Of a stretch of 64,000 nt of DNA, positions 1 through 38,200 are shown piece by piece. How positions within the stretch are numbered: the first letter of the stretch is position 1; every line of letters begins with the position of its first letter. Made by a program: the position numbers and the translations under genes. Origin of the DNA: Raillietiella orientalis (lineage: Eukaryota); NCBI GenBank assembly GCA_036172245.1, contig JAYWIR010000004.1, positions 2,418,001 through 2,482,000 of the forward strand, in the 5' to 3' direction. The notes under the pieces were generated by a model. The model did not search any database. It was not told the origin of the DNA and worked only from the letters and a program-made list of their open reading frames with translations.

Positions 1-900
1 TAGAGTCCACTTTTCTTCCTCTCCGTATGTCTATAACTTTGCCGGTGTGCTCTGTCTGCTGATTACCCTATTTTCTATGCTTTATAAGAGCGGCATTCTC
101 TAAACTCTGCCAACTTTTCAGTAGCCAGATGCCAGGACGTTTATCTAGATCGTTAGATAGGATTTACGTCACTGTTTATTTTTCTTTACTGCTGTTGCAG
201 GTGACTTTTGAAGATTAAAGTGTGATTTCTAGAGTGATACATCCACAGAAAGCCTGAAGATCCTAGAACCTCGGATGTAAAATACGTATAAAAAACGCGT
301 GATTGACATTTGGTTTCTGATTCCATAGCTGCTGCTTCATAGATAGGTAAAATACCAACTCTGCCTGAAATTTGTTTCGAATAGCGTCGAGTTCCAGCCG
401 TGTGATTCCTGATTTATCTTAAAATGTAAAGCGTTCACAATATGGAAATACAGTGAAATGTAAGCACCGGGAAAAAGAGATGTATCGAATAACACCAAAT
501 GAAAAAGAACCTGAAGTTGGTGCTCTTCCAACAGGCATTTTCTGGATCAGGGAGGAACCTCAACAACAAATTGCCATGGCAATTCCGCTGGAGTGCTCCG
601 GAAGAGATCCACTGCGGCGCTAAATAACAGCAATAGTTTGTCCTTATGTACTATGAATACTATGATTGCAGTGTTTCGAAAATGCTCTGTAAAAACTTCT
701 CGAGAGAGAGAAGAGAGAAAACAGCGCCTTGAAAATCCAAATGAAGCCACGGAAGTATTTTCTCCCTCTCGTCATATTTTGGATTGCACTCACGATTTCA
801 CATTCCAATTTCCAATTTCTTCACAAGACGTACACCTAAATATGGTTAATGTACTTGAAGTATTGTACTCGGCACGAATTTACAGCACGCAAGCACTCAT
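1..900 (-). mobile_element. Decayed L1/Tx1-like LINE, AP-endonuclease region (runs off the window edge)
   Basis: Minus-strand remnants LWNQKPNVNHAFF..PRF*D and KRPGIWLLKSWQSLENAALIK resemble the D.W...P...FT...RLD and GPG.WKLN.SLL motifs, in the expected order. Confidence 0.45.
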
Positions 901-1998
901 ATAAATGCCTTTTTTTTAAAAAAAACAAAAAAAACATGAAAACTTGCAATGTCAACCGTGAATTTACATTACCAATCTGGTGTTAATAAAATGAAGGAAG
1001 AAAGGAGAAAACAGTCTTTTCTATTCTTCGAAACTGTTTAAATACCATATTAGCAAATGCAGCATTTGAATTTGGTTGTTTATGTGCATCTCCGTGTTTA
1101 TGTAAGTGTTAGATAAGGCTCGGAATCCCTCTCCAATGACCGATGGAATAATTAAGCAGTAAGGACTCAATCTGGTATAACTTGAGTCCTGGCTGCAGTG
1201 ATAAGGAGGAGAGAAATGATTTCGATGATGTGATTTCACGTAAGCAATCGACCACGTATTCGTATTTTTCTTTAACCCCCAACGTCGTATTTTTTATTTT
1301 TTTTCCCGTTTTAACAACACTTTTACAACAGAACATTGCAGCTTCTTCTGGACTTGCTCCCTAATCAGATCTTTTTGCAGCGCTGTAACCTCCAGAGATC
1401 TGAAGATATGTGTAAATGTAAAATTTTTCCTTCGTGAAAAGCAGCAGCACCGGAAACGGTTGCAGATGGGTTGCAAAACCGAGGTAGTTTGTGGAACTAA
1501 GCAAGCATTTAGTTCAGTAAGTTAACAAGAAAAATAATAAAGAGCAAAGTGTGTATTTTCAAAATTTTATATAATAATCTACCAAGCATATGATTCAAGT
1601 TTGTTTGCTAAATTTTGATATGAATGCAACTTCCCAAATCATAGAATGCTTTCTGCAAATCGGAAGTCCGCAGTTTGGTCTTCGTGAATGAACACACTTA
1701 ATTTGCTCGTGTTGTAAATCTGTAAAGCATTATGTTTCATACACATGAATTACTGAAATCTATATTTATTTCTTGTATTCGAGTCGAGATATGGATATTT
1801 TTTTTTAAAATAAGAAAGCAGTATATCAATCAAATTCATCAAGTGGCATTTCATCCAGTTGGCATTTCATCATGCTGTATTTTCTTAGTTCAGGGAAGCG
1901 TTAAATGAAAATGAAATCGACAAACAAAGCATTTTTTTTTTTTTGTCAACTGCTGAGCACCTGTACAAGAAAAGTACATTCAATAGTAAAGAGGTATG

Positions 1999-2344
1999 CA
2001 TCACGTGACTAAAAATATTCAATAAACCATAATTAGTTGCTGCTTACGTTTTACTCCATGCACCTAATACTCAATAGTAGGGAGTGAAGTGGTTCCCAGT
2101 TTTTTCATTACGCAATTGGAATTATTTCGTAACTTTCACCCGGATGTAAACGTTGTGGGATTTTGATAACTTATCACGTTTTGTTTTCGAGAAAGACAGA
2201 GTAGAAAATTAACAAGGGAAGCCATGTAATTATTCTTATTGGAAATCAACGTTGAGAAATGTGAGAGGGTTAAGATGGTTTACTTTAGGTGACGGCTACG
2301 AACATTCCACGAAAGAGAGACGTAAAACCAAACATCACGTGACT
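1999..2344. promoter_or_regulatory. Two identical 12-mers CATCACGTGACT (extended E-box, SREBP/USF/MiT type) upstream of SAM synthetase
   Basis: Exact copies at 1999-2010 and 2333-2344 in AT-rich DNA. Confidence 0.4.
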
Positions 2345-4033
2345 GTAAAATCCTCAACTTTGTCATTTAATTCTTTCATCATAATAACGTATATACAGCA
2401 CATGTCATGCACTACTTCATCATTTCTTTTTTACAATGTTGGTTCAGTATATGTCCAGTTTTATACGTTGGAATTTTTGATTATGTATTGAAAGTATCGA
2501 AGCTTTATGACTGAGGTGCCGAAGGAAATGGAAGCCATCAAAAATCGGCACGTTAGATGCTGAATGTACGTTATCTATGATAAATCAAATTATGTTTTTC
2601 TGCATTTTGCGTTCTTGGTTGTGTTACAGTACTTTCGTGTTCAAGTTTTTAAGTATCTTAGTTTAGACTGCTCACTTGTTCAGATTGTGTTCTTTGTTTA
2701 CATTGTTTTTAATTCGATCTGGGCACATTTCACACTAAAGGGAATGCAATTCTTGCATATATGAATCGAGACATCGATAAATTTCTTTGTTCCTCTATTA
2801 TAAAATGGAATCGATCCATACGGGATACCGTTTTTCCTATCTGTCTTCAGTTCTGTAATTTTATTTTCAGATAATTTGCTTTTATTTTGACTCCTTTACT
2901 CGTTTTTATAATATTTTTATGTCAAGTTAACTTGGGATGACTCTGGAAAAAAGCCTTTCTTCTAGGAATCATCTAAATAAGAAAATTTTGTGCTGCTTGC
3001 TACACGAGAAAAGTCGATAGCATAAACTGTTTGAAAACTTGGCAGGATGAAAAAAGGTAAGCGTGAAGAAAAGACTGAATACCCGAGTGTGCACCGTATT
3101 CGGCTAAAAACACCATGGCTAATAAGCATTCGAATCTTTTAACTTGAGAGACAATATTAAGAATATTTCCGTCATAATGTATCCATTATTCATGAAAAGT
3201 ATTACGAGTTTAACTTTCGGAGGTTTTGCCTGGTTAGCAATTGCAACTTCATACAGTTCCAAGGAAACACACAAAAAACTAAGTTATGAAGTAGTAGCAT
3301 AATCAAAAGTTTTCTTCAAGATCAAATAATTGTGTTTGTTTTTTCCAATTTACGCATAATCCGCAAAATTGAGTGACTAGCATACAGAACCAAAAACCTG
3401 ATCATGGTTGCCACGCATATCTGTATTCTGTTGACGAAAGTTTATTCCTGAGATTTTTTTCTTGTTTTTGATCATTCGTGTTCGCTATGTTTGTTATGAT
3501 CAATACATTTTCACATGATCGCAATAGCAATTTTCTAAAATCTCAAAGTACCGGCAAAAAACGGAAAGGTAAAATTAATAATGACTCTTCCATGTTAACT
3601 ATAGATCATCTCCACATTTAATAGAAGAACTAAAAATTCTTAACATGAAATGCTAAGCTTAAACAGATGCTTGAGATGCAGCCACTGCGTTAATACAGCA
3701 CACACCGCGTAATGGAAATTCTGTGGCATGTGTATATTCGAAACACACACATCTAAAACCCATTGTGCCTACTAATGGTCGATTTTCGCATATGCATTAC
3801 TATTAAGAGGGAATTATTTTCAAGGTATCTTTTTTATTATTTTAATTATCGTGCAAAAATCACTATTGCATTGAAGTTCTCCGAAGCTGGTAGCCCGTGT
3901 GAGAACAGAAGCGCCATATTGAGATCATCCAGTTAGATGCAAGTTTATAGCGCGCAACATGTGTGAGACTTTAAGTAGTCCCTGCGCTAGTTGCAAATGT
4001 TTACAGTGTAATTGTGCTGCCTCTCGGAGCACC

Positions 4034-6049
4034 ATGACTCTGGATAACCAGTGTGCTTTTTCTGAAGCCGAAGGTGTCGATTCAGATTCAGTTTTTTTGT
4101 TTACATCTGAGTCGGTAGGAGAAGGACATCCAGGTAATAAATTAGGTTTTGATCCTTTTGCTGATTATAGTTGCTTCTCAGATAAAATCTGTGATCAAAT
4201 TAGTGATGCTGTCTTGGATGCGTATCTTTCCGTGGATCCAAATGCCAAAGTTGCATGTGGTAAGTTAAAACCACGAAACGTTAATAGTTTTTAATTGGCC
4301 TATTATTTTGCTTGCTATTATTTTTCGCGGTATTATTATGGATTGACATCGGAAGTTTGTAAGTGAAATGAAATTCAGATATGCACGTAACTTTACGACA
4401 TGTACAACGTGAAAATATACAACCATGTTTTATAATCATAATAAAGCGTACGATTTAGACTGCAGAGTGTTTACGAAACATTATGAAAGGAAAACATGTA
4501 TGTTCATGGCAGTTTAGTCATTTGTGACTATTGTACTTAAAAATGTGGCCGAACAAGTAGCGAAATATAAAAGGGGCGCATTTTCGTAATCAAACTGTGC
4601 AGTGTAAAGGATGCTAATTAAGTAAAACATGTACTTCGATTTTCCCTCATTTGCTTTTGGGTAAAGTGTCCTCATTCTGACGTTACGGAAAGTAAGTCAG
4701 AATATTTTTCGCTATCGATATCTCCGTTCTTCAGTAGTGTATGGATCTTACTTTGTAGAAACTGTGACGAAAACGGGAATGATTCTCCTTTGTGGAGAAA
4801 TCACATCCAATGCAACAATCGATTATCAGAAAGTAGTGAGACAAACTATTAAGGAAATAGGATTTGATGATTCGAGCAAAGGTAAGTTTTAATGCCATTA
4901 AAACAATTTGAAGTGCCATCAAGGATTTGACTGTAAAACACTGAATTTATTGGTTGCACTGGAACAGCAAAATCCAGAAATTGCTGCAGGCGTACATGAG
5001 TCTCGAAATTTGATCCACTTGGGAGCAGGAGATCAGGTTTTACTTTGATGAATGATGACAATTAATTTGTATTTTGTTATTAGGGACTGATGTTTGGTTA
5101 TGCAACAGATGAAACTCCTGAGTGCATGCCTTTAACAGTCGTATTAGCTCATAAAATCAATAAAACAATTGCAGAACTACGTCGGAATGGGACCTTTTGG
5201 TGGGCATGGCCAGATGGCAAAAGTCAGGTACTCTGTAATTAATGAATTTCCCTTTTCATCAGTAGTTTTCTAGGTGACATGTGAATATACATTCCAAAAA
5301 GGAGTTTGTATACCTTTGCGTGTTCATACAATTGTTGTTTCTGTTCAACATTCACCAAAAATTGATCTAGAAGAATTGCGCAGTACTATAATTTCTGAAG
5401 TAATTCGAAAAGTTGTACCTGCAAAATACTTGGATGAGCGCACTATCTTTCATATCAATCCATGTGGCAGTTTTGTCATTGGAGGCCCACTTGTAAGTGA
5501 AATGAAAAGCATTTTGGTTATTTATGTGATTGTCAAAGGGAGATGCTGGTCTTACTGGACGGAAGTTAATTGTAGATACTTATGGTGGGTGGGGAGCACA
5601 TGGAGGTGGTGCCTTCAGTGGGAAAGATCCTACCAAAGTAGATCGTTCAGCTGCTTATGCATGTCGCTGGGTTGCTAAATCTCTGGTTAAAGGAGGCCTA
5701 TGCCGGAGATGCTTAGTGCAGGTATGCTAATGCTGAACTACTATTGATGGTGCCCCTTGCTAGGTGTCATATGCCATAGGTGTAAGCAAGCCAATCTCAT
5801 TTACAGTTTTCACTTATGGGACTGCTGTATGCAGTGAACAGAAGCTGAAACAAGTCGTAGAACAGAATTTTGATCTGCGACCAGGTGCAATTATAAGGTT
5901 TGCTGCTGTAGATAGTTATTCAAGACTCATTCGTTTGCTCTTGCAGAGATTTGAATTTGCTGAGTCCATTCTATAGGCGTACAAGTACATTTGGACATTT
6001 TGGTTATGATGAATTCCCTTGGGAACAGCCAAAAAAGTTAATTTATTGA
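4034..6049 (+). CDS. MAT: S-adenosylmethionine synthetase (methionine adenosyltransferase). Exons 4034-4133, 4182-4259, 4759-4881, 4924-5036, 5084-5227, 5274-5492, 5539-5721, 5764-5897, 5947-6049; 398 aa. An in-frame upstream ATG at 3959 is possible.
   Basis: Spliced GT-AG translation gives [79 protein letters not shown] and FGHFG. Exon lengths sum to 1197 nt, in frame to TGA. Confidence 0.97.
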
Positions 6050-6158
6050 TGTTAATTTAAGGCACATACAATGTTTTTTTTATTACAAACGTGTTTTATT
6101 TTGACCACAGATGCAGATACTGCTATGATCGTACACATAACATACTTGGAATTAGAAA

Positions 6159-6188
6159 AATAAATTTCCATTTTAATTAAGAAATAAA
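6159..6188 (+). terminator. Putative polyadenylation signals of the SAM synthetase gene
   Basis: AATAAA at 6159 and about 6183, 110-140 nt after the stop codon. Confidence 0.5.
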
Positions 6189-6527
6189 TACTCTCCAATG
6201 CTGATCGCAAATTGGTTCTAGTGGCGTGTAGTCACAGTGCATCTTGAACTACAGGGCTACAGGTGATCCGATACACATCCTTAGCATCCTAAAGGTTATC
6301 TAAGTTTATCCGGAGTCTCGTTTCCCACGTAGCACCCTGCTTCATGTTGATTTACAGTGGGTGCCTTACCATGGGCTGCCGCGAAAGTATGCGTATGTTG
6401 GCAGAGTTTGCAAATGGAATAGAAAATTCCCTGATAATAAAAGTTCCGAAGTTTCGGAACGCTATGAAGCGCGTTGAACAGTGTGCGTTGCCTTAGGACA
6501 GACTTTACAAGTAATTAGCTCAGAGTT

Positions 6528-7145
6528 TGTTACTCGTTTGCTTCGGGACGTTTATTAATAAGAAATCGTCTGGGAACAGTTTCCAGGCAAGGGGAGCAGA
6601 AGTTAAGGGGAACGGCTTCCAGACACGCAGGTCGGGCATACTGAGAGTTCGGAACGGCAGGGGAGGGACAATAAATACAAATAGTGGGGCTGGTAGGGAC
6701 GGGTCTGCAGCTTCAGCCGTTCCTCTTAGAACCGGCGGCGAATGCCGGCAATCTCCGTCCTTCGTCGAGGTGTGGCCTCCCGGCAGCCAATTCCAGATTG
6801 CAGGTTGCACTGTCGGGGATCGATGTTGGGACCGCTCGCAGCTGCAATACATGGCGGGCCCTGACAATGGCACGGACGCAGCAGATGATTCCGATGACCG
6901 CTCCAAGAGATAGGCGTGAAGAAGCGGCGCATGCAGTTCATTGCGGTGTCCCATGGATGCCGAAGACAGCCGCCGCCACAGCCCTGGAGGGCACCGCAGC
7001 CGAATAGGAGGTGTGGGAGCGATTCCACCGCTCCGCACCTTTTCCAGTTAAGGGAAGAGACCTCCGGAAACCAGGTGCGCGCGCTGGTTGCAATAGGGAC
7101 CGCAATGCACCAGAAGGAAAGCGTCCTGGTTCCACCGAAGGGGGA
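6528..7145 (-). mobile_element. 5'-truncated L1/Tx1-like LINE 3' end (zinc-finger remnant plus 3'UTR) with an 11-bp TSD
   Basis: GC-rich block in AT-rich DNA. Minus strand reads DAFLLVH..KRCGAVESLPHLLFGCGALQ/LWRRL, with a minus-strand AATAAA at about 6551. AGCTCAGAGTT flanks both sides (6517-6527, 7146-7156). Confidence 0.8.
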
Positions 7146-8699
7146 AGCTCAGAGTTGTGGAACGCGCTTTAGAGCGTCGTATCCTACATTGAAAGTTATG
7201 AGATGCCTGTGTGTCTTTTGGAAGTGGTTATCTAAAAAGAATTATAAAGTAGTGATTACTAAGGATTATTTAGCAGTACGTGATGCCAATTAATGTAGCA
7301 CATACACTTGGGGCAAATGAAAACTAGGAAGATTGATGCAACTACTCCATACGTAATGTGAAGGATCTACATATATTAGCAATTTCATCGCTAATAGAGG
7401 GCCTATAGATTGACCAGCTTGTGTTTTGAGAAGCGAATTTCCGTTCGAACTTTTCGTGATACAGCTGATACAGTCTGATATAGCTGTGGGTTAACTATAA
7501 CTTATTTTTTCATCGTGTCTAAAACATTAATTTGAATAGCTTAAACGCTTTATGTCTTTGCATGAATTTTTCATTCCTCCAGCTAAAATCAAGCATATTA
7601 CCGTTTGCAGTTTTCTTCATCTAAAAAAGAATTTGTGTATTATTATGACATTCCAAAACTACTATGGAGAAGTTTCAGACAAATTTCTAGCAAAGTTTTT
7701 CCCCTAAAATTTGATATTGCTGATTCCTGAATTCTTCATTTTTTTTAAAAAAAAGAATCATGGTCTCAATTACTTGAGTTAGAAAAATCACATTCTGTTA
7801 ATTAAGAAATCAGAGAACAAACTCAAATTGTAGAAGTCTCATCTATTAGCCTGCTACTGTTATGCGTTCTGTTTTATAAAAGAGAGTGCTTGTTATCGTC
7901 ATGAACCTTTCCAAGGGAACCACCTAAAATGAGAAAGGCTTTCGATTGAAATCATCCAGCTCTTGCAAATTAGTAAACACTTTCCCCTCAATTTTATCGA
8001 AGCTACCAGTAAGCAACGACAGTCTTCGAGCCTTGATATCCTAGTCCTTCATAGTTAAAATGGTCTGCCTTCATACTTCTCCGCTGAGTCTGTTTGAAGA
8101 ATAAGGAAAACATACACACAAGTGTGTTTTATTATGAGCACCCTTTCAATATGACATCGCATCCCTTTTTTAAAATGTCCTTAAGGAAATGTTTGAAGGG
8201 CTATGGATTTTTTTTTTTTTCTCTAAGAATCTGTTCAGCTACAATCACCTTTAGAACTCATTTCATAATTTTAGTGCTTCAGCTCTTTTCGGTGAAATGC
8301 TTGAAACCTGCTATGCAGTTCACAGTCCGCTTCCTTTAGTTCTCCGCATTTGGCAATTTTATGATAATTTTCAACAAGAATTCTTTCTTTCGAAATTTGC
8401 ACGATTAAATCGTGCGTAAAGCAGATAACTGATATCCAATAACATGCCCATCTGCGAAATTTCTGGCGTACATTCTACTGCTTATCAATGTTGACTTGAA
8501 CTTGACTTTACATCTTCCTGGAAACAAGCATGACTGAACGGCAAATGCCAAAAAATAGTTTCACTCTTGTGAGGATTTCCGCAGTGCTTTTCTATACGCA
8601 CTTGCATAATATATTTTTATCATCATAATCCGCCATATTGACCGAAAATTACTCCTAATAAAGTGAGGATTTGAGGTTCAAGAATAATATGATCAGACT

Positions 8700-10100
8700 G
8701 ACTTGGAATACTCTCGAAATTTAACCTGGTATGGTTAATAAATCGAGGTTTGGCACACAAGGTAGTCCACCTAATGGTGGACTACTTTCTAATGCAATTA
8801 TAATTGCATAATCAAATTATGAAATGAGTTCTGCACTATCATGATGTCGATGTCATAGTGGTTGTATATTTTAGTCACTGATATTCAATAGCTTCAGAAG
8901 GAATGGTGAGTTCTTCGGATTACATGTCTTTGCAGTTGTTCAATCCCATGATTTCGTATTTCCTAAAGCTGCATAAGCTCTGTGTGTATGGGAAAAAATA
9001 TTCCTTGAAAGTACATAGATACTTGTCATCTACGAAATCCTATATTTCCAATTCCATTCTGAAAAAGCCCACTGTTCTACACAATTTTCATTTTTCGTGT
9101 GTTTTTCAGATCTCCTTCAGAATTCTTACACGGTTGCGAATCACTGCTTCATAATAGTCAACGTGCTATTCTATAATTAAATGCTCTCAGAAATGTTTAT
9201 TTTCTTTTGTTATATTTGATTTTTCTCTATTTCTTTCATTCCCTTCTCTAGACAAATCATTTCAGTTGAATAATCTACTATATTGAATGACGCTCTGGTG
9301 TAATCTTGACTTTGATTTTCTTGAATGGTGCTTTTAAAACCGAGGGTAGGGAATTTTTTTCCAAAGATTTATTTCACGCTGAATTTTCATGCCATCATGC
9401 CATAAATATGCTTTATGAAGGACTTCTCCACGATGTGTGGCGCAGAATTCTGACAAATCCGAACAGAGCCGGAATCTGCCGAAATCACTCCCGAGCTGCT
9501 AGGAGGAATCGGGTCCAAAATTCGAGATTTGTAGCCTTCGTTTGAAGGCGCTGATGAATAATGGGGAAGAAAAATCAAAGTGCTCTACATCATGGGATAA
9601 TGTCAAAAAAGATATTCCTCGAGCTGTGAGAAACTTCCGCTTACTTCCAAAGTTGTTTTCCGTCAAAGTGGCAGTCTGTGCTCGTCATACAATCCTTCGG
9701 GAAGCAAATGTGACTGAAGTAAACAGTCTCAGAATCGCACATGGGTGCGGGAGAAAGAAATTCACATAATGAAGCACTCTTAATCATTCTTAGGGTCACA
9801 GAATATATCTTTGCACTCTAGGGATGCCAGAAAGCGAGTTTTGTACATCCGATCAGATTAATTTTCCGGTTTGCAACCTCGACCACAAAGTGGTTTAATC
9901 TACAGGGGCTAATTAAGTAAAGGTTCTCGGGTAATTCTTTTGGGAAAGTGCTTCGGACCCTTTTCAATGTGTTTGAAACGCTCTTAATAGCTGTAAACAT
10001 ATGTTCTGGTCTTCCATCATGCCAGATGGACAAATGTCATTTCATGCACGCGTTTCTTTCGGACATGTTTCAAGCCATTTGAAAGTTTTGCTTTCCTTTG
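8700..10100 (-). mobile_element. Very decayed L1/Tx1-like LINE (ORF1 plus endonuclease start)
   Basis: RVRSTFPKELPENL (ORF1-like), a corrupted CCHC knuckle near 9720, then ILKEI*KTHE (QETH-like) and EIMGLNNC (GDFN-like). Confidence 0.35.
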
Positions 10101-10638
10101 TAAGGTTATGTTGATTCTTACGTAATTAAAACCGGCTCGAGTAGGCGTAAGCAGGGAAGTGTATGAAGTTGTAAGATTGTCATTTCCTTCCTATGTTTTC
10201 ATGTTTGTCACATACTATTTTTTATTCTCGTGTTGTTTACATCATTTGTTATTTCCAATTTTGTGTCCTATTAAGTCTGTGGAATGTGGTTGATGCATCT
10301 CGTGTTACGTTTGATTCCCAGTCTCCCTGGTGCGTAAATGATGCATTTGCTTTCACGTTCCAAAGACTACATCTGAAAACTGTTGTCACTTTCACAAACA
10401 CTGATCCCGGCCGGTTTTCTTAGACTACTTATTGCATTGCGTACACTCAACATAAATTGTGAACATTATTCCTAAGACCAAATTTCATGACTAAACATTG
10501 ATGCTTGCTTGTCAAACAAAAAGAATTCAAGTTTTGTGTGTAGGTTTACCTTGTTGGATTTTCTGTTTGTTACAGCCTGTATATAAGAACTGGTTTATTT
10601 GTGGGAAGCTTGTACGATGTTTAAGTTCTCATTTTAAA

Positions 10639-13274
10639 ATGACTCCCAATCGACTGATACAGGAAAACTCTTCCTATTTACAGCAGCATGCTTACAATCC
10701 TGTGGATTGGTAATTTTTATTGCATAAGAAATAGATTTTTTTTTTTTTAATGTTGTGAATAAATTTTGCGAATTCGCATCATTTTAGATTATGTAATTAT
10801 TTATATTCCTCCTAATTTCAGGTTTCCTTGGGGGGATGAAGCATTTCAAAAGGCTAGAAAAGAAAACAAAATAATTTTTTTATCGGTTGGTTATTCTACT
10901 TGCCATTGGTGTCATGTTATGGAGAAAGAAAGCTTTGAAAATCATGAAATTGCTCAGATCATGAACGAGAATTTTATTAATATCAAAGTTGACAGGGAAG
11001 AAAGACCTGATGTTGATAAATTATATATGAGTTTTGTTCAAGTATGACTTACCTTATTAAATTCAAGTGACTTTAATTCAAACAATCCTGTCATGCAGGC
11101 ATTTTCAGGGAGAGGTGGATGGCCCATGAGTGTTTGGTTAACTCCAAGTTTGAAACCATTGTATGGTGGAACATATTTTCCACCAGCTGATCAAGTTGGA
11201 ATGCTTGGATTCAAATTTGTATTGCTTAGCATTGCCAAACAAGTAGGATGCTGCACAAAAACAAAATGGGAAAATGAGCTAATCTGTCTAGTGGAAGAAG
11301 AGCCAAATGCATTTAGAAGAATTGAGTAGTCAGATTCTCAGAGATTTGATTCAGCAGCCTCAGTTCATTAATGTTGATCAAGAGTTACCTCCTTTACTTA
11401 CTGTTGATAAATGTTTTCAAATGCTACAACGTTCATATGATAAAGGCAATGGAGGCTTCAGTTCTTCACCTAAATTTCCGCAACCAGTGAACATTAATTT
11501 TCTGCTTTGTTATGCTTCCTGTTCAGAAAATGTGAAAAAGCAAGAGGAATGCATGCAAATGTGCAAACAGACACTAACCAAAATGGCCAATGGAGGCATC
11601 TATGATCATATTGGTCAGGTAATTTGTACGGACAATGGTTAGATTGTTGGCCAGGGCTTTTCCAGATACTCTACTGATGCTTATTGGCATGTTCCCCATT
11701 TTGAAAAGATGTTGTATGATCAAGCACAACTTTTGAGCATATATGCACGAACTTATCAAGCAACAGGTGAAGCTTTATTTGCTCGTGTGGCTCAAGGCAT
11801 TTATGATTACATCATCCGGGATTTGAAAGATGAAGTAGTTCCTAATATTTTCCAACATCACATTTTGTGTATTATTAGTCAGGAGGATTCTATTCGGCAG
11901 AAGATGCAGATTCACTACCTCAGATTGATGCAACTGAAAAGAAGGAAGGGTCATTCTATGTATGGACTGAAGGAGAAATTTCCGATATGTTGCATGATTC
12001 GCTCCCTGATTCTCAAGTGACTATTGCTGAAGTTTTCTCTTTGTATTATGGTGTTAAAAAGAATGGCAATGTGTCTGCTTCTGGGGTATGGAATTTTGTC
12101 TCCAGTTTTGATGTAGTTAAACTTGTGAAGGATCCCCATGGAGAATTAAGGAATCAGAATGTTTTGCACGTGAAATATAGTGTGGATGAAGTGGCAAAAC
12201 AGGTGTCATTGCCGCCAAATGTAGTGGAAGAATATTTGGAAAAAGGTCGTCAGAAGCTGTGGTTGGCTCGTCAGAATCGACCACGTCCACATAAAGATAA
12301 AAAGATGATAGCATCCTGGAATGGACTTTTGCTTTCTGGATTATGTCATGCATATGCATGTCTAAAAAATTCATGTTATCGACAAGCAGCAGTGCAACTT
12401 GCAACTTTTCTGCAAACTCACCTTTTTGATAATGTGCAGCAGATTTTGTTTCGCAGTGCTTATGCTGGCAGCCAGTCTGTTGATTTCAAGTAAGTGTCAA
12501 CTATCTAATAATTTTTTTATTTTAGTATATTATATTTTGACCCTAGAAAGTCAGATGTGCCTGGGTTTGTGGATGACTATGCTTTTTGTATTTGTGGCTT
12601 GTTAGATCTTTTTGAGATCACTTTCGATTTTTGTTGGTTAGAATGGGCCTGGAGATTACAGCAAAAGCAGGATGAATTATTTTGGGATAATGAACTTGGG
12701 GGCTATTTTCTGTCAGCAGCAGCTGATCCATTCATCCTTGTGAGGATGAAAGAAGAACAAGATGGTGCTGAACCATCTGCTAATTCTGTATCATTGAGTA
12801 ACTTATTGAGGCTATCATCAGTGTTGTGTTGGGAAGAAGGACGTTCAAAGGCACAGAAGATCCTAATTGCATTTGCTCATCATTTGAACCAGTCTCCTAT
12901 TATACTGCCTCAAATGGTTGTTGGCCTGATGTGGTATTACTATTCCACCACACAGGTGAGTAGCTTTTTCGTTGATCTAATGTTGTCTCCAGATTGTAAT
13001 TGTTGGTCATCTCTCCCAACCTGACACCCAATCTCTTCTGGAAGTTGTCTATTCCTCGAAACTATACTTTAAAGTTCTGATTCATTTGGATCCTGATAAT
13101 TTGCCTACATTTTTGATAAGTCATGTGCCATATTTTCGTGATTTTCTGAAGAAAGGAGATCATGCTACTGCATATGTGTGTAGGGATCGTTCATGTTCAC
13201 TACCACTTGTGTGTCCAGTTGAATTAGAAAAGCTTCTTAAAAGCAAATCATTAAGAAACAACACATCCGACTAA
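10639..13274 (+). CDS. SPATA20: SPATA20/YyaL-family protein (thioredoxin-like DUF255 plus six-hairpin glycosidase-like). Exons 10639-10709, 10822-11041, 11099-11242, 11292-11618, 11655-11834, 11879-12085, 12131-12489, 12547-12955, 12993-13274; about 732 aa. The true start may be further upstream.
   Basis: [96 protein letters not shown] and DGAEPSANS. Exons sum to 2199 nt in frame. Confidence 0.96.
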
Positions 13275-13489
13275 TGAAGATTAGTTTCTTTGATCAGTGC
13301 GTATTTTCTCATCTTTTCAGTGCATAAGAATGATGCTTTTTTCTTTGTTTTATAAAAAGCACTGAGGTCCTCTTCTTTGTTGGTTTATCCTTTAGGGATC
13401 ATTGATGGTATTCAAAAGGGATCATGATCTTATGGATCTGTTCCCGATCAGCTTCGTTGCAAATGATTTTCAATTAACAAATTTGTTTA

Positions 13490-13499
13490 AATAAATAAA
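13490..13499 (+). terminator. Putative polyadenylation signal of SPATA20
   Basis: Overlapping AATAAA hexamers about 215 nt after the stop, followed by T-rich sequence. Confidence 0.5.
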
Positions 13500-14399
13500 A
13501 AAGTTAAATATTAGAGTTATTTTATTTTTTCATTTCATATGCATACAAAAAATTAGTAGCATTTTATTAAAAAATTGGGCTTCTTCAAAGTGGTTAAGCG
13601 GAGTGCCAGTTTTTATCTTTCTAGAATCCATAATCAACCTCTTTCATGACTATTATATATTGCCACGTATACCGTGAAGTGCACAATACTTCATGGTATA
13701 CATGGTTTTTATTTGATAATCTGTTAGAATTTCAATGAAATTTATGCTCAAATGTGCAGTTGATATTGAGTCAGTATCAGTCAAATTACTGATCAATTTG
13801 ATTGAGCATGGAATGGAATAGAATGAATCCAAGACTTAAACCCAATTGTTAGTTCCTTTGTTTTGTATTGGGTGTGACAAAATTTTCATGATGTGTGGGT
13901 TCAACCTAATTGTTGTCAAACTAATCACCATTAAGTAAATAGTAACAGAAATCAGTTGCATGCATTTCTGAGAAGAAAAGCAGTTATCAACAAGAGAACT
14001 CGAGGATTAAGGGAGTCTTCCAGACATGTTGTAGCTTGCTCTCGGTGGAGTGGTACACAGCAATGCAAACATCAGAACAAAATAAACAAAGAGAATCCAT
14101 GTATCTAAGTGTAAGCAGTGTTGATTTGTCTGTGATTGTTTGCATATCACTCCAGAGTAATACATAATAATTAATGAAACTGGTAAGCTGTACATGGAGA
14201 TTTTGGCTCCTTTATATAAGGTTGCTGTATGAAGGATGAATGAGATGAGTTTGAATAGTAATATCAAGCACGGTATGCATATGTATGTTTTTTCATTGCT
14301 GCATAATATAATTAGGACCTTCATTCGCGAAGCAGTTCGTTTCCAAGCGGAATGTCTTTATTAATCAACAGGGTTGCGTTTTTTTCGAGGCCGATTTCT

Positions 14400-16400
14400 G
14401 CGTAAGCATTGATCAAGCACTAGATGCACTGGTTTCCAGCTTAAGATCTGATTGGAAACAGACCGAGAGTTTTCGGCTCGTGGAAGGCGTATTTCTCCGG
14501 CCTATTCTCTGCTGAGCTCAAAGTTTCTTATGTGTGGGTTGTCAAACGTTTTTTTTCTGATCCGAAGCGTACACAAATTTCATGCTTGGGGTTCCACGCG
14601 ATCCTGATTTTACTGAACAAGTAAAGTTTCTCATAGTAAAGTGAATAAATTTATACCCCAAAAAGAACAATTGAAACAAAAGATGGAACACAATATTTGT
14701 CCAGTAGCTGAGGAATCTGTATTTGTCTTTATTCGGAGAACTCGAAAAAAGAAAAAAAGAATTCATCATTCAGTAACACGTAGTAAGAATATTCACTCAG
14801 TGGTGGGACGGGTAATAATCACCATCGAATGCATTGTGATGTTTAGACGAATAACAGTACAGTACAGTAAGCAGTCCCTAGAGACCTGGTCACTTTATTC
14901 CCTTGGGTTGCTTGTTTCTGCAATTGCCATCTAGCAAGTAAACACCATAAGTTTGGGAGACAGCTAGCCTTCAAGAAGAATAGGTTCAAAGTTTGACACA
15001 AGAACCAAAGGTTCTGGTAAAACTTAAAAGCATGGGAGAGTTCTCAAATCTATTTAAAGAACCTCCAGCTATCTTGAAAAGGAAAGAGCTGGCTCTTTCC
15101 TCTTGTCAGCAATCAAACAAGGCTTCGAACAGCATCTGCAAACAAGTCGATTGCTTATCAAGGTAACACAGTGAATCATATTGGAAAACTCTTGGAAGAC
15201 TGTTTCAAAAAGTGATACTTATGCTCTTAAGGTCAACGAATTGGCAGAGCAGGACCTTCTTTATCACGGAGACTAAGCCACTGAGCCGAAGTTCACGAAA
15301 GTGATGGTTTCTGCTGTTGCGAGCTTCCCCAGATCAAGAGATTGCTCACGTTTCCAATAACTTTATGAATAAGTTTAGGCGAACTTCGCCAGTGGCACGG
15401 TTTATAAACAGATTTTAGAAGCAATAGAATAATGTATATGTCCATTGTGTTCCAAATCAAGGGGCTTTGATTTGCCCACATAGCTGATAATGGCTTGAAT
15501 GTGCGTTAGGTGGAACTGTAAGATCAATGAATTTTATCAGAGTTCTCCATTATAAACGAATGTACCTGAGGAACACTAAGAAGGATGGATGCAGCTTTGA
15601 AAATCCATTGTATATTAAAGTTTGTCGGTTAATAACGGGTCGTATCTTAGTGTCTCGAGTGCGTGATCCAAAAGTTGAATCATAAAATATCTGCGAGCTT
15701 AACGCAATCACGTAACTCATTTCCACGAGCTGTTGGAGCTCTTGGGTGACACTGACGAAGAACTTTGCGAACAAGTACTCCCGGGAAGAACATTGGATAT
15801 AGTTCTCTTGTAAATGACTCCCTTTACTCTAGATGAGGTGTTCATGTTGCTGAGAAGAGCGGTTAATTCCTCCCCCTACTATTGACGGGATTACCTACTT
15901 TCCGGATGGTGGATGGTCGATCCGAAGGCAGTGATTTTGACTCGATTTTCAACATGTCATTGAAGGTGCGTCAGGTTCCGGCTGCATGAGAGTGTGCGAT
16001 CGAGCGGTCCTTTTTCCGAAGACTGTGCCATCCCTGGATGCTTTTGAATGGAGATCGATTTGAATAGGCAACAGCGTCCACAGGCTATATACCAAGTGTG
16101 TGTCGAGAGAATATTCAGGGAATGGATCCTTGAGCTCGGAATGATCTGCCTCCAGCAGAAAGGTACATTGCCTTGTGATGGGGTGTTTAGTCAGAGCTTC
16201 GTTTTGCAAACCCGTCTGGATACTACGAGGCGCCGGTGCAGTGCCGGTACATGCCAGGATACCGGCATGGTCTTTAAAGACTTTGCCAACTCATTTGGCA
16301 CCATTTCCAATAGCAATAGCTCATCGGTGCGAAGGCACGTTCAATAAGTTATCCTTGTGAAAAAATGAGCAAAGGAAATCCACAGACCTATCCATTCACT
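14400..16400 (-). mobile_element. Decayed L1/Tx1-like LINE, RT region
   Basis: LPG..LFAKFF (PG.DGL..EF), KIRPVINRQTLIYNGFSK (RPISLL...YK..K) and LLLLKSVYKPCHW (D..KAFD.V.W), in order. Confidence 0.5.
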
Positions 16401-32256: not shown

Positions 32257-35200
32257 ATGGACCCGTCACGGCGCCACCCGCGCGCCGCCACCGTCCGCGT
32301 GCTCCTCCTCCTTCCTCCCCTCCTCCCCCTCCCCCTCCCCCTCCCTTTCCTCCTCCCCTCCCTGCTGCTCCTCGCCCCGCTGCCGCTGCAGAGAGGCAGC
32401 TTGGCGCTGCTGGCCGTACCCTCCATAAAGAACTTCATTCATGACCTCGAAAAGACCGCCACGCTGGTGCAGGACCTCTCCATCCCTTTCCTGGACATCA
32501 CGAAAAGTGAGTAGGGGCGCGCCACCGGGGGGTGGGGTCCGTCCAGTACTTCCCGTTTCTCCTTCGAGTTTCCCTTCCTACTCTCCCCTCCTCCACCCTG
32601 CGCTTCCCCTTTTCCCCGACCCTCGTTCGGGATCGCAGTCAGTTCCCCGTGAAGACCGCCCTTCCCCACCGGCCTGGGTTTTCGCCCCACCCCAATGAGG
32701 TCGGGATCTCTACTTCCCGTCCTTCCGGTTCGAACCTTCCGGCGGCTCACGGAGAGAGTCGCTCTCGGGGCCCCCTTTCTCCTGGTCCCCCTCTTTCCTT
32801 CCCCTTCTCCTCCTCCCGGACGCACCGTCGCGCTCGGGTCCTTCTCCTGCGGGAGGGTGACGCCACCTCACGTGCTCGTTGTCCCAGCTTCTTCCTGGAC
32901 GGGGAAGGGAGGGGAGGGGGAAGAGGAACAACGGAGTGGGCCCTGGGCCCGGTGCGCATCGTGTGACGATGCCCCCTCCTTTCCAGGTGGGGAGGTCAGG
33001 AGACAGTGCTACAACGAGCTAGGATGTCTGGAGCTGGACGACGACTGGTACGACCTAACCCACAGACCGGTCAACCTGTTCCCTATCCAGCGGGAGGTCC
33101 TCAACACCCAGTTCCACCTGTACACGCGGAGGAACCTCCTGAAGCCGGAGCTGCTGGTCGCCGGCGACAACGGCACTTTCGCGCGGTCCGAATTCCGCGG
33201 TGGCCTGCCGATCTTCTTCATCGTGCACGGATTCCTGGACCACGGGAAGGTGTCCTGGATACTGGTACCTGTCAGATTCTTCCGCGTTCCTCCTACTCCG
33301 GGAGCGAGAGGACGGGGAGGGAGATCCGTCCCTCCCCTTCCTTCCTTCGCAGGGAGGGAGGGAGGAAGGGGGGGACGTCGCCGGAGGTCACGTGAGTTTC
33401 GTCCTTGCGACCGAGCGCGCAGGAGAGAGGTCGACCTCGCACGCCGCGCCCTGAGTCGTCCTCAGGGGTCGGAGGACCGAGCGGTTAGGGCATGCCCTCA
33501 GATTCCTAGGGACCGAAGGGCTTTGTCACCCTGAAGGTCCCATGAGGTACATCAGGGTCGCATAGTGAAAGTCGACCGCGACGGGCCGTGCGTAGGGTTG
33601 CTACGGAGATACGGCGCGGCATTCGTCCGAGGCAACTCGTTCCTCTTTTCGTCTCCACACCGTTCCTGCCACCACCATCGCCGCCACCGCACGTCCCTTG
33701 CCTTTTGTCCTCCTTCCCCCTTCCTCCGTTCTGACCCACGTTCACGCACCTCGAAATCATCGGGTGACCAACCTTGACCTGAACTCTCCTCCGGACTCTC
33801 TCCATGGAGCTCAAAAACAAAACAAAGCCAACAAAAAAAGGAAAGAAAGAAAGAAGGAAGCTTGCGGAGGCTGAGCGAACGAATCCGCGGACCGATGGCG
33901 GAGGAGGCTGCTCTCTGGGGCTAAGCGACAGGGAGTGTGCGCGTCAGAGGATGACCGCTCCAGTTTTCCGCGCCCGCAGATGCCGCCTCTGGCTTCTGCG
34001 CTTCGGTCCGGAGGCGGAACGAACCGATAGAGAGAGAGAAAATCTCAAACCGTAGCGGCACGGCTCCTCGTGCCCGATGTGGTGGGGCGCTGCGTGCGCA
34101 CGCGAGAGGATGTAGGGAGGGGAGGAAACTTCCCCGTTCTCGACTGACCAGCCTGGATGCGGGAGCCTTGCGCGCTCTTCTCTCCCCATCACCGCCGCCG
34201 CCGGTTCTGCCGTCGCAGTCTCGGCCGCGCATATCCCTGCCGCCGACTCTGCCGGTCTTGGCATCGCTCGCCATCTGCCGAGATCCTCCCTCCCCCTCCT
34301 TTTCGCAGTTGCTGCCGGCCTCATCGTTCTTGGAGGAGACCGGGGGCGTCTCGCGCGCGCCACGGGTCTCAGGGTCCGCTTCCCCTTCTCTTCTGTGGAC
34401 GCGGCTAAAAGAAAGCGAGGTCCTCCCGCCTGCTCTTTATCGGAGAGGTAGGAGGCGGGCGGGAAGGCTTCTTGGGCAAGAGGGAAGCTCCTGAAAAGGA
34501 GCTGCCGGGACTCCTGCCGCTGTGCACCGTGGTGCATGCAGCCGTGGCGCCCCACGGCCGAGGTCAACCGAGTCTCATTGCTGCGAAAGGGGGGGGGGAG
34601 GGGGAGGGCCTCTCCACCGCTCAGGACCACGTGCCACGTGCAGCTGGGACCACGAGAGATCCTGCTCCTCCCTTTGAGCGTCGATCTTCTTCGGCCTCAG
34701 CTCCACCGATGCTCGCATGGGGAAGTCCGCGCCAGCACGTGAACTTCTGAGCGTGCTGGCGCGGCGGGACACGCGCTCCAGGAAGAGGGCGGTGCCGCGC
34801 GTTTCTCTTCTGGGGCGCGCGGATGGCGTCCCTCGCGAGCAACCTGCTCCTAGATCCTTCTCGCGTCTTCCGACTGACGCACGTCCCTGGGCAAGACGCG
34901 TGGGAATGACTGCCGGCGAATCGTCCCACCTGACGCTCGGTGCCCCCTGGGCACGTGGCTTCCCGTCCGCCCTTCCCTCGGCCCTAAACATCCGGAGCAC
35001 GTGGCAAAGGAGCGACTGCTCCTTTGCCACGTGCTCGGAAGACGCCCGTCGGGTTTCGCTGCGCGGGGGCGTGAGGCTGCGCAGAGAACCTCGCCGACTT
35101 CACCACATCCGCTCGTTCGGTCGGCGCCGGCTACCTCCATCCTCCGCGATGCTCCTTCCCTGCTGCGAAGGTTCCTCCCGATGGGTTGCTACTGGATCGC

Positions 35201-38200
35201 CTGGAACTGTTGGTCCCGATGCGGCTGGACGGGGACAGTCTCCCGGCTCTTAGGTCGTTTGGTGATCGTCACAGCAGCCAAAGCTGCTTGCCAGACTTTT
35301 GAGAGGAGAAGCCACCCCAAGGAGCTGGATGGACGGGTCACTACTCCGTTCTCCCTCTCTCCCCTCCTCCCTCCCACCAAGCCACCGGCAGGCTGTCCAA
35401 GGAAGCGCGATATTCGAGACCGAAGAGAGTTGCGCATGCGCGCGCGCCGGTTTTTGGGAGATCGGTAGAGCCCGATGCTGCACCGAGGACAGAGGACACT
35501 CCTGAGCTCAGAGTCTCCTTCCTGGAGTCGAGCGCGACCGTCTGGAGAGGGGGCCAGCGTTCGCGGCAGCGCGGCGGGGTCTTTCCGATTCTCCGCCGGG
35601 TGGTAGAGGGCGGCAGCAGGGCTTTGGCGCGTCAAAGGGAAAGCAAAAGGTCTGCTGGCGATCGTAGGAACGGAACACTCCCCGCGGTATCCCCGTCTTC
35701 TTGCGTCCTTCAAGGCCGGTAAATCGGCTTCCCTCGGGGCCGCTGCCCTTCGAAATGGGAAAGTTCCCGACGATTGCATGTCGCCGATTGGCGGCTCGAT
35801 AGATTGTTCGTTCCCTCCTAACGAGGGAGATGTTAATTCCTTCGTCAGCCAGAAAACAAACAAACAAACAAAAAAAGGAGGAGGAGAAGAAGAAGAAGAG
35901 AAAACAAAATCCGGAACCTTCACTTAACCTTCACTTTCACCTTCCCTTTCTACCGGGAGGCGCGCGCGTTCCGAAAGGATCCACTGCGACCAAAACAAGT
36001 CGGGCAGCCTGGGGTGTTCGCCCGCGACGCGCCGGCTCGACCGGAAAGCGCGGGTGCGCGCCCTCGCACGGGACTGGGCGGTCTGCCGTCAACGAGCTGC
36101 TAAGCCGCTCCTTTTCCTCCCGGGAGCAATCAGCATCGCACGAGCGTCGATGATCGCTTGGCGGGTGCTCTTAGCCCGCTTTCCATCTCGCGGACGCCGC
36201 CGCCAGTTCGTTTCGTTCGGTACTCCTCGCGCCTGCGCGGCTACCTAGGAACGGAAGCGAAGTGTCTCGAGCACGGATCGAGGGGGGGGAAAGGTGTGCG
36301 TCCGCGGTGCCCGGGTCACCTCCTCCTGGGGAAAGGGGGGGCATGGGACCCTGTCCCGTTCTCAGGCACCCCTTTGCGCGCGCAGTGCTGCGTGACGACC
36401 GTCGACCTGTAGCCGCAGCCGGCAGTGGCGACAATGGCGGTGATGACCCCCGCGAGAAAGGTTCACCTTGAAAGTGCGGATCGCCCGCGCGCTTTCCTCC
36501 TTCCGGGACATTCCCTGTGGCCGCAGGGGTCAAGGATGACTACTGTCGGGAGACGAGCCCCGGAGCTCTCCGGACAAACGCGAGAGCATCCGCCTGGAAT
36601 GAATTTTTTCCAGGATATGGCGACCGCTCTGCTGAAGGTCAAGGATGCCAACGTGATATCCGTCGACTGGGGAGGAGGCTCCATGGGGCTGTACACCCAA
36701 AGTGTCGCCAACGCCAGGCTCGTCGGCCTTGAATTGTCCTACTTCATCCGGTACATCATGGTAAGAGGGAAGCAGAAAGAACGAAGGGGAGGAAGAACAG
36801 TGTTTTTCTCCCCCCCCTTCCCCCCTCCTTTTTTTCTTTCCCCTTCCATCTTATCTCTCCCTTCCATCTCCTTCCCCTTCCAAATTCTTCAGAAACAATA
36901 CGCCACTGATCTGTCCAAGATGCACCTGATTGGCCACAGTCTGGGGTCCCACATCGCCGGCTACGCCGGGTCGGAGATCAGAGGCATCGGCAGGATCACG
37001 GGGTTGGATCCTGCCGAGCCCTTCTTCCAAGGAATGGGGCTGAAGGTGCGGCTCGACCCCTCCGACGCCAAGTTCGTGGACATCATTCACACGGATGGCC
37101 AGAGCATCCTCTTGCAATGTAATGAACCTTCCCCTCCCCCGCGCGCCACCTTCACGCTCCCACTTCCACTTCCAGTTCTGCCCCTGCAGCTGCTCACCGG
37201 CTGGCTGTCCTCAGGTAAACCGAAAAGCAGCCCTGCTTGCCCGCGCTCTGTGTCCCGGGAATCCCGGGGTCCTTGCGGCGGTCCTTCCTTCCCTCGTCGC
37301 TCTCGGGACGCGCGCCGTGCCGTGACACTCCGGCACGCTTCCACCATTCTCCGCGCCCGTGCCCGAGACACACCCGAAAGGGGGCGTGGCCTCGGAATCC
37401 CCTGAGCGAGGAAAGCGATCCGGCGGCGACGGCAAAGGCAGGAGTCGAGTGGCGTCAGCAACAGCAGCAGCTGAACCCCTCCCCCGTGTGTCGGACGAAT
37501 CTGCCTGGATGGCGGCGGAGCGGCGAGAGAGAAAAACGGAGGGAGCAGCTGGAAGCAGGGGAAGACCGGGGTGGGGATGAAAAAGGAGGGTTCGCTCCTG
37601 AACCAGGCCACGAGCCGGCGCGTTGGCTCCATAGGAGGGGGCCAAAGAGGAGGAAGGACAGGCGAAACCCGAAGAAGACTCCCGTTGACTCGTCCGGGAC
37701 GTGTCGCATGGTGTGGCGCCGAGATACGTCCTTCGGTACCAGGCGCAGCCTCGCTCGTAGGGAGGAAGTGGGGTGGATAAATGGGAGCGCTCCCGCTTTC
37801 GCCTGCGGCATCCTCCCGCTCCTTCCCCAAGGGAGACCCGCGGCCGCCGCGACCACCTCCGCCCCATATTGAAACTCGCGCCGTGTGGTTCCAGGGCGCC
37901 ATTCGCCGCGCCGCGGGATGGCGTCCCCGTTCATGGTGGAAGAACCTGCTCCAGCGCCGAGCCTTGCCCTGCGACAGGAAGACATCCCGAGGATCTTCGG
38001 CGCCGCCGCGGACCTGTCCATGGACACACCGGTAAACGCGGAGCGCGGAAAGATCCGGGACTCCCGTCGCGGGCGGGGAGAAGAGGGGATCGGAAGAGGA
38101 AGCTCCTAAGGCGCAGAGGAGGGGGGCTCTGTGTTCCTGAGGCGAAGTATGTCGCCGAAAGAAGGGAAGGGATGGAATCGCCCCAGTACAGGAAGGGTAC

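Follow-up and report, generated by a model that had tools for sequence, protein, structure and literature searches.

A long second intron in an arthropod-like SAM synthetase gene, at the junction regulated in worms and without a METTL16-type motif

In vertebrates, MAT2A carries hairpins in its 3'-UTR (UACAGAGAA), and the retained intron controlled by METTL16 is the terminal intron of the gene. For worms, a second study is reportedly that of Watabe et al. 2021 (EMBO J). The worm study on which we draw here, that of Mendel et al. 2021 (PMC8208822), places the site, in its accessible portion, at UACAG|AAAC within the loop of a stem-loop and with the AAC in exon 3, and mutations of either the motif or the stem abolish methylation. 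From the RT-PCR bands given there (502, 225 and 133 bp) we derive a worm intron of 369 nt with an alternative site 92 nt upstream. With the sams-hp RNA, in which the pentamer is numbered U14-A15-C16-A17-G18, substitutions A15G and C16U each reduced methylation by METT-10, according to the available sections of PMC10018337. In the fly, where the nonamer is intact, the available text of PMC13608003 reports that neither Mettl16-dependent m6A nor a Mettl16-dependent change in expression was seen under normal culture.

The gene described here bears on the proposal that a SAM synthetase switch acting through m6A at a 3' splice site is general among invertebrates. Its second intron lies at the junction that is regulated in worms, and our analysis leads to the view that it is, on balance, probably an ordinary, constitutively removed long 5'-proximal intron that is spliced at 4758.

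Gene structure and the length of intron 2

We analysed a stretch of DNA of 64 kb (the window), whose + strand holds a SAM synthetase gene running from an ATG at 4034 to the end of the stop codon at 6049. In the spliced model, nine exons (4034-4133, 4182-4259, 4759-4881, 4924-5036, 5084-5227, 5274-5492, 5539-5721, 5764-5897 and 5947-6049) encode a SAM synthetase of 398 aa without internal stops. Full-length comparison of this product with animal SAM synthetases gave 70-75% identity to many of them across ~380 residues, and none was closer. Exon 6 belongs to the MAT-domain class, with 110 MAT-domain matches among which the full-length ones have PF00438/PF02772/PF02773; over this exon the best named matches are arthropod SAM synthetases, at 63-71% identity.

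The eight introns measure, in order, 48, 499, 42, 47, 46, 46, 42 and 49 nt. Intron 2 (4260-4758, + strand) is in phase 1 and splits a Glu codon between KVAC and ET; it opens with a consensus donor, GTAAGT (4260-4265, + strand), and ends in TTTGTAG ahead of AAAC. Retention of this intron brings in a stop codon at 4292-4294. The sequence-only reading had singled it out for its 499 nt, as against 42-49 nt in the other seven, and all coordinates and counts proved exact on re-checking against the sequence.

A second gene of the window offers a wider comparison. It is SPATA20-like (thioredoxin-domain, PF03190; 10624-13274, + strand), and for one of its exons the best named matches are from fishes and sharks (45-48%), with those from arthropods at 43-44%. 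Its seven short introns measure about 112, 57, 49, 36, 44, 57 and 37 nt. Modelling of the two genes gave 15 introns, eight in SAM synthetase and seven in the SPATA20-like gene (the latter from a guide-protein splice model with some boundaries approximate). Intron 2 is the longest of them and a real length outlier, the other 14 spanning 36-112 nt. Introns close to the 5' end of a gene are often long.

Directly after the 3' end of the SAM synthetase gene lies a G+C-rich stretch (6200-7300), in which both strands carry open frames of 110-175 codons; the segment 6150-7400 had 0 matches elsewhere in the window. At a larger scale the composition changes sharply, from 35-40% G+C in 1-16000 to 53-64% in 18000-44000. 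Within the GC-rich part, lipase (PF00151) exons occur in the open reading frames 32695-33534 and 36425-37405, ~3 kb apart; they resemble arthropod clusters of phospholipase A1 type. The gene architecture of this part is very different from that of the AT-rich part with introns of 36-112 nt. This change could represent an isochore-like shift or a chimeric assembly.

The acceptor of intron 2 and its splicing

The acceptor of the gene model reads UGUAG followed by AAAC (4754-4762, + strand), which occupies the position of the worm nonamer UACAG|AAAC and differs from it at the second and third bases. The sequence-only reading had equated this junction with the one regulated in worms and had transcribed the motif as UAC-UUUGU-AG|AAAC. 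The transcription is exact, and the equation is consistent with the nonamer and with the placement of its AAC in exon 3 in the accessible portion of PMC8208822. As at the worm-type junction, AG|AAAC falls inside the Glu-Thr codons that follow KVAC, the boundary here being GTAG|AAACTG. Since the codons for Glu and Thr impose the exonic AAAC, its presence is uninformative. The sole free part of the motif, a UAC directly before the AG, is absent, and the UAC lying five bases further upstream carries no weight. The recognition pentamer is UGUAG, not UACAG, and carries both A15G and C16U.

A + strand search for TACAGARAM found no match within the gene or in its 3' flank (none in 3300-6600), and the three matches in the 64 kb all lie elsewhere. 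Folding of four windows around the acceptor predicted no stem-loop (z = +0.71, +1.09, -0.18 and +1.08), and the 36-nt fold at the acceptor gave an MFE of -1.4 kcal/mol with an empty centroid, so that by prediction the stem-loop is missing too. With a UGUAG pentamer, no nonamer and no predicted hairpin, the defining METTL16-type features of both sequence and structure are thus lacking. From these features we infer that acceptor 4758 would not be a METT-10/METTL16 substrate, and that m6A is probably absent from it. The earlier suggestion that an m6A switch had been lost here holds in so far as no working METT-10/METTL16-type site is found (UGUAG, no hairpin on folding, no nonamer). The word "lost" goes further than the data, in which a site lost from intron 2 would look the same as one never present.

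Outside the gene, TACAGAACC at 3383-3391 (+ strand), 650 nt before the ATG, is the sole + strand TACAGA in the vicinity. It was considered as the METTL16 site of the gene and rejected, as there is no sign of co-transcription and the window shows no enrichment of TACAGA (24 occurrences vs 18.2 expected).

Two further AGs precede the acceptor within the sequence CAGTAG (4732-4737, + strand), one ending at 4734 (CAG) and the other at 4737 (TAG). As the sequence-only reading had held, they lie 24 and 21 nt before the used acceptor and are both in frame and stop-free. Splicing to 4734 would add 24 nt and the eight residues VVYGSYFV, and splicing to 4737 would add 21 nt and the seven residues VYGSYFV. 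That reading had also described the upstream acceptor as the better-looking one, in agreement with our local PWM (a small one, built from 14 other acceptors in the window), which gave scores of 5.7 bits for 4734, 4.8 for 4737 and -2.6 for 4758. The two upstream sites have the top scores among all AGs in intron 2 and a higher pyrimidine content than 4758, which, together with the PWM scores, counts against an ordinary intron. Leave-one-out scores of real sites extend from -4.3 to 9.8; 4758 falls inside this range and is not abnormal for this genome.

Skipping of upstream AGs is a common feature of the gene. Four of the seven short introns contain such AGs 8-22 nt before the used acceptor on the + strand (intron 1 at -11; intron 3 at -10; intron 5 at -11 and -8; intron 8 at -22), and RNA of a relative, described below, confirms the distal acceptor for introns 1, 3 and 8 despite them. 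Shortly before their acceptors, intron 5 (5257-5273) and intron 2 (4729-4758) both have TCAGTAGT; the two AGs of the intron 5 CAGTAG, 11 and 8 nt upstream of the TAG in use, are both out of frame.

The last 60 nt of intron 2 contain a single YTNAY, the putative branch-site-like motif CTTAC (4747-4751, + strand), which includes the "UAC" cited in the sequence-only reading and whose A, at 4750, lies 8 nt from the intron end. We take CTTAC (A4750) as the candidate branch site of intron 2. Six of the seven short introns have a YTNAY at 14-18 nt from their 3' end, and the skipped AGs lie beside this motif or ahead of it; the 8 nt that separate CUUAC from 4758 are a shorter distance than this, which counts against the ordinary-intron reading. 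In the 36 nt before 4734 no YTNAY was found. Given that the sole branch-site-like motif of intron 2 lies downstream of 4734 and 4737, these two sites are probably not competitors.

Evidence on splicing came from one metatranscriptome with a small share of the sequence words (0.05), which contained three contigs matching the SAM synthetase gene. Their identity to the window is 90-99%, which indicates that they derive from a relative, itself put at 90-95% identity. The contigs are spliced as modelled at introns 1, 3, 4, 6, 7 and 8, that is, at six of the eight introns. At intron 2, one contig ends its alignment at 4257 and continues for 10 more letters that span the exon 2/exon 3 junction: the first two correspond to the final dinucleotide of exon 2 and include a synonymous change, and the last eight are those of 4759-4766, so that exon 2 runs directly into AAACTGTG. 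The relative therefore splices exon 2 to exon 3 at the canonical start, and not to 4735, to 4738 or to the intron. This junction rests on one low-depth contig and 10 letters, and minor isoforms are invisible in contigs; as rare forms drop out of contigs, the lack of contig cover over intron 2 says nothing on retention.

Under the ordinary-intron reading, intron 2 would occupy an old, widely shared phase-1 position (KVAC|ET) of animal SAM synthetase, and would have reached about ten times the length of its neighbours by happenstance. Splicing would proceed from the GTAAGT at 4260 to the TAG ending at 4758, presumably in a constitutive manner. The AGs at 4734 and 4737 would be skipped because the branch-site-like CUUAC lies downstream of them, in the same way as the short introns skip AGs close to their branch-site-like motifs, and acceptor 4758, with UGUAG and no hairpin, would stand outside the METT-10/METTL16 substrates.

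Content of intron 2 and alternative readings

Rfam gave 0 matches in the window at the gathering threshold and 0 at E<=1 in 3900-6300. The fold of the whole intron 2 is unremarkable (z = -0.95; 15 of 100 shuffles reach an equal or better fold), it contains no ORF of note, and no other copy of it is present in the 64-kb window, where a 17-mer is the sole standout. This 17-mer is an exact repeat, TTGTAAGTGAAATGAAA (4357-4373 and 5491-5507, + strand; blastn-short E = 0.002), of which the first copy lies inside intron 2 and the second spans the exon 6/intron 6 donor. In addition, a 16-nt near-copy of exon 6 (5465-5480) is found at 4507-4522; it is not collinear with the 17-nt repeat. A 69-nt in-frame cassette picked out by eye (4623-4691) was discarded: it would place ~31 foreign residues in a conserved strand, and its acceptor is outside the 12 best-scoring AGs.

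Besides its own donor, intron 2 carries two internal GTAAGT on the + strand, one at 4359-4364 inside the 17-nt repeat, and one at 4692-4697, at a distance of 43 nt from the downstream AG that ends at 4734 and of 46 nt from the one that ends at 4737. Two extra copies were reached by 431 of 20000 shuffles (2.2%), which counts against the ordinary-intron reading. The spacing from the 4692 donor equals the usual intron size of the gene (42-49 nt), and the segment is a possible nested or decoy mini-intron.

The alternative that survives best attributes the extra length to neutral debris, that is, to decayed inserted or duplicated DNA which includes a fragment of the exon 6/intron 6 boundary and has no function of its own. 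The exact 17-nt copy and the 16-nt near-copy of nearby gene sequence point in this direction, as does an intron devoid of structure, Rfam family or notable ORF, although the two matches are not collinear and the window holds no other copy of intron 2. We give this origin a small but real chance; it is compatible with, and not opposed to, the ordinary-intron explanation.

Intron 2 could, alternatively, be a module for unproductive splicing that is independent of METTL16, in which the internal donor at 4692 (or at 4359) is set against the true donor at 4260. Joining 4692 to 4734 or 4737 would remove an intron of 43 or 46 nt while keeping 432 nt of intron 2, and the stop at 4292-4294 would turn the product into a decay target that tunes enzyme output. 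Several features would suit such a module: the GTAAGT at 4359 and 4692, rarely matched by the shuffles; the agreement of the 43/46-nt spacing with the introns of 42-49 nt; the position of 4734 and 4737 as the best-scoring AGs in intron 2; and, in the accessible portion of PMC8208822, the worm intron at the same junction, which is both long (369 nt) and regulated and whose length counts in turn against an ordinary intron here. A shuffle frequency of 2%, however, is weak after many features have been viewed, and the 17-nt repeat around the 4359 site could have arisen by neutral duplication. On the sequence features at hand, such a module appears rather unlikely.

Improbable as well, in our estimate, is feedback, again independent of METTL16, through a decoy mini-intron. 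If introns in this genome are defined by a length of ~45 nt, donor 4692 with the CAG/TAG at 4734/4737 might act as a decoy, and either use of this mini-intron or retention of the remainder would leave the mRNA with the stop at 4292-4294. The regulated step would in that case be productive splicing over 499 nt to the weak TAG at 4758, and a junction under m6A control in worms would have been taken over by splice-site competition. If it were true that the intron is regulated by another route, a single intron position would serve SAM homeostasis through two mechanisms.

The sequence-only reading had proposed a different outcome, a rewired SAM-sensing switch in which regulated use of 4734/4737 yields an in-frame isoform with eight or seven extra residues before the conserved Glu, that is, an inactive protein and not a decay target. 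Both AGs are in frame, stop-free and outscore 4758. However, in random sequence of the composition of intron 2, the probability of an in-frame, stop-free AG in 30 nt is 0.305 for at least one and 0.062 for at least two, and the frames of the two AGs are not independent, as they lie 3 nt apart; their occurrence is not beyond chance. Skipped AGs are common in the gene, and the identical CAGTAG stands out of frame in intron 5, 8-11 nt from the acceptor. Moreover, all 73 of the 73 homologues that cover the junction show standard spacing and no insert of 7-8 residues, the contig of the relative has the canonical junction, and the 36 nt before 4734 are free of YTNAY. We consider this proposal unsupported and very improbable.

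Weakest of all is the idea that A4757 is methylated in its UGUAGAAAC context, perhaps by an enzyme of altered specificity, and blocks U2AF35 as in worms: the junction and the exonic AAAC are identical to the worm nonamer and the intron is long as in sams-3 (accessible portion of PMC8208822), but UACAG is required, A15G and C16U each reduced methylation and are both present here (available sections of PMC10018337), motif and stem mutations abolished activity in the worm study, no hairpin is predicted at the acceptor, and the intact motif of the fly went without Mettl16-dependent m6A under normal culture in the available text of PMC13608003, and we find the idea hardly credible.

The same junction in other organisms

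Using as query the open frame from the end of intron 2 through exon 3, we found 26 short ORF fragments on genomic contigs. In 25 of them foreign sequence stands directly before Glu-Thr/Ser, which reveals an intron at this junction. The residue before Glu fixes the last three bases of the intron plus the first base of Glu, assuming phase 1 as at the window junction. Among the 25 fragments it is Thr (ACAG) in 14, Leu (YUAG) in six, Ala (GCAG) in three and Ser (UCAG) in two, so that at the peptide level ACAG is absent in 11 (P0232, P0236, P0243-P0247, P0251-P0253 and P0256). When exon peptide and upstream dipeptide are taken together, the fragments form 15 distinct combinations, five of them of the Thr type; the fragments are not phylogenetically independent. 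According to these residue counts, introns at this junction often end in a plain YAG that is not part of ACAG.

The fragments without the motif resemble the window gene in that a phase-1 intron with a plain YAG end precedes Glu-Thr, the residue before Glu being Leu, Ala or Ser in them and Val in the window. Unlike the window intron of 499 nt, their introns are short where the length can be inferred: P0253 reads through an intron of 75 nt, and P0232 reads from exon 2 through ~61 nt in a shifted frame (compare the window frame 4146-4268). A metagenome scan with exon 6 returned 31 loci at a best identity of 66% (69-72% over the full length), none of them a close relative, and the 14 metagenome loci containing the KTGM region have no intron at KVAC|ET.

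Eleven fragments on different contigs (among P0233-P0242, P0248, P0249 and P0254) have Val-Thr directly before Glu-Thr, even though they diverge in the intron read-through further downstream. Such a pattern points to conservation of an intron end GUN-ACA-G across the species of the Val-Thr fragments, as a maintained UACAG would give.

With the pentamer absent here and ACAG absent in 11 of 25 fragments, a 3'-splice-site m6A switch is unlikely to be universal. As it stands, the locus shows an ordinary gene structure and adds little beyond this.

Among the known systems, vertebrate MAT2A shares with the locus the enzyme whose production is under feedback through the splicing of one intron, but the intron regulated there is the terminal one and not intron 2. 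Also unlike MAT2A, the window gene has no + strand TACAGARAM in or after it, that is, no 3'-UTR feature of the UACAGAGAA type. Insects stand closer, the enzyme of the window being arthropod-like: an intron is present at the homologous junction in Drosophila Sams (intron 4/exon 5; available text of PMC13608003) and in Bombyx (accessible portion of PMC8208822). According to the same portions of these two papers, insects retain UACAGAAAC, which METTL16 methylates in vitro, whereas the window gene is without the motif.

The closest counterpart is intron 2 of C. elegans sams-3/4/5 (Mendel et al. 2021, accessible portion of PMC8208822). The two differ in the pentamer (UGUAG here, UACAG in the worm) and in the stem-loop, which is not predicted here (PMC8208822 and PMC10018337, in the portions available), and also in the alternative sites, which here are in-frame AGs at -21/-24 and in the worm a frame-shifting site 92 nt upstream. 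They agree, in the same portion of PMC8208822, in the enzyme and in the AG|AAAC junction within the Glu-Thr codons, in alternative AGs upstream of the productive acceptor, and in an intron well above the genome norm, of 369 nt in the worm and 499 nt in the window.
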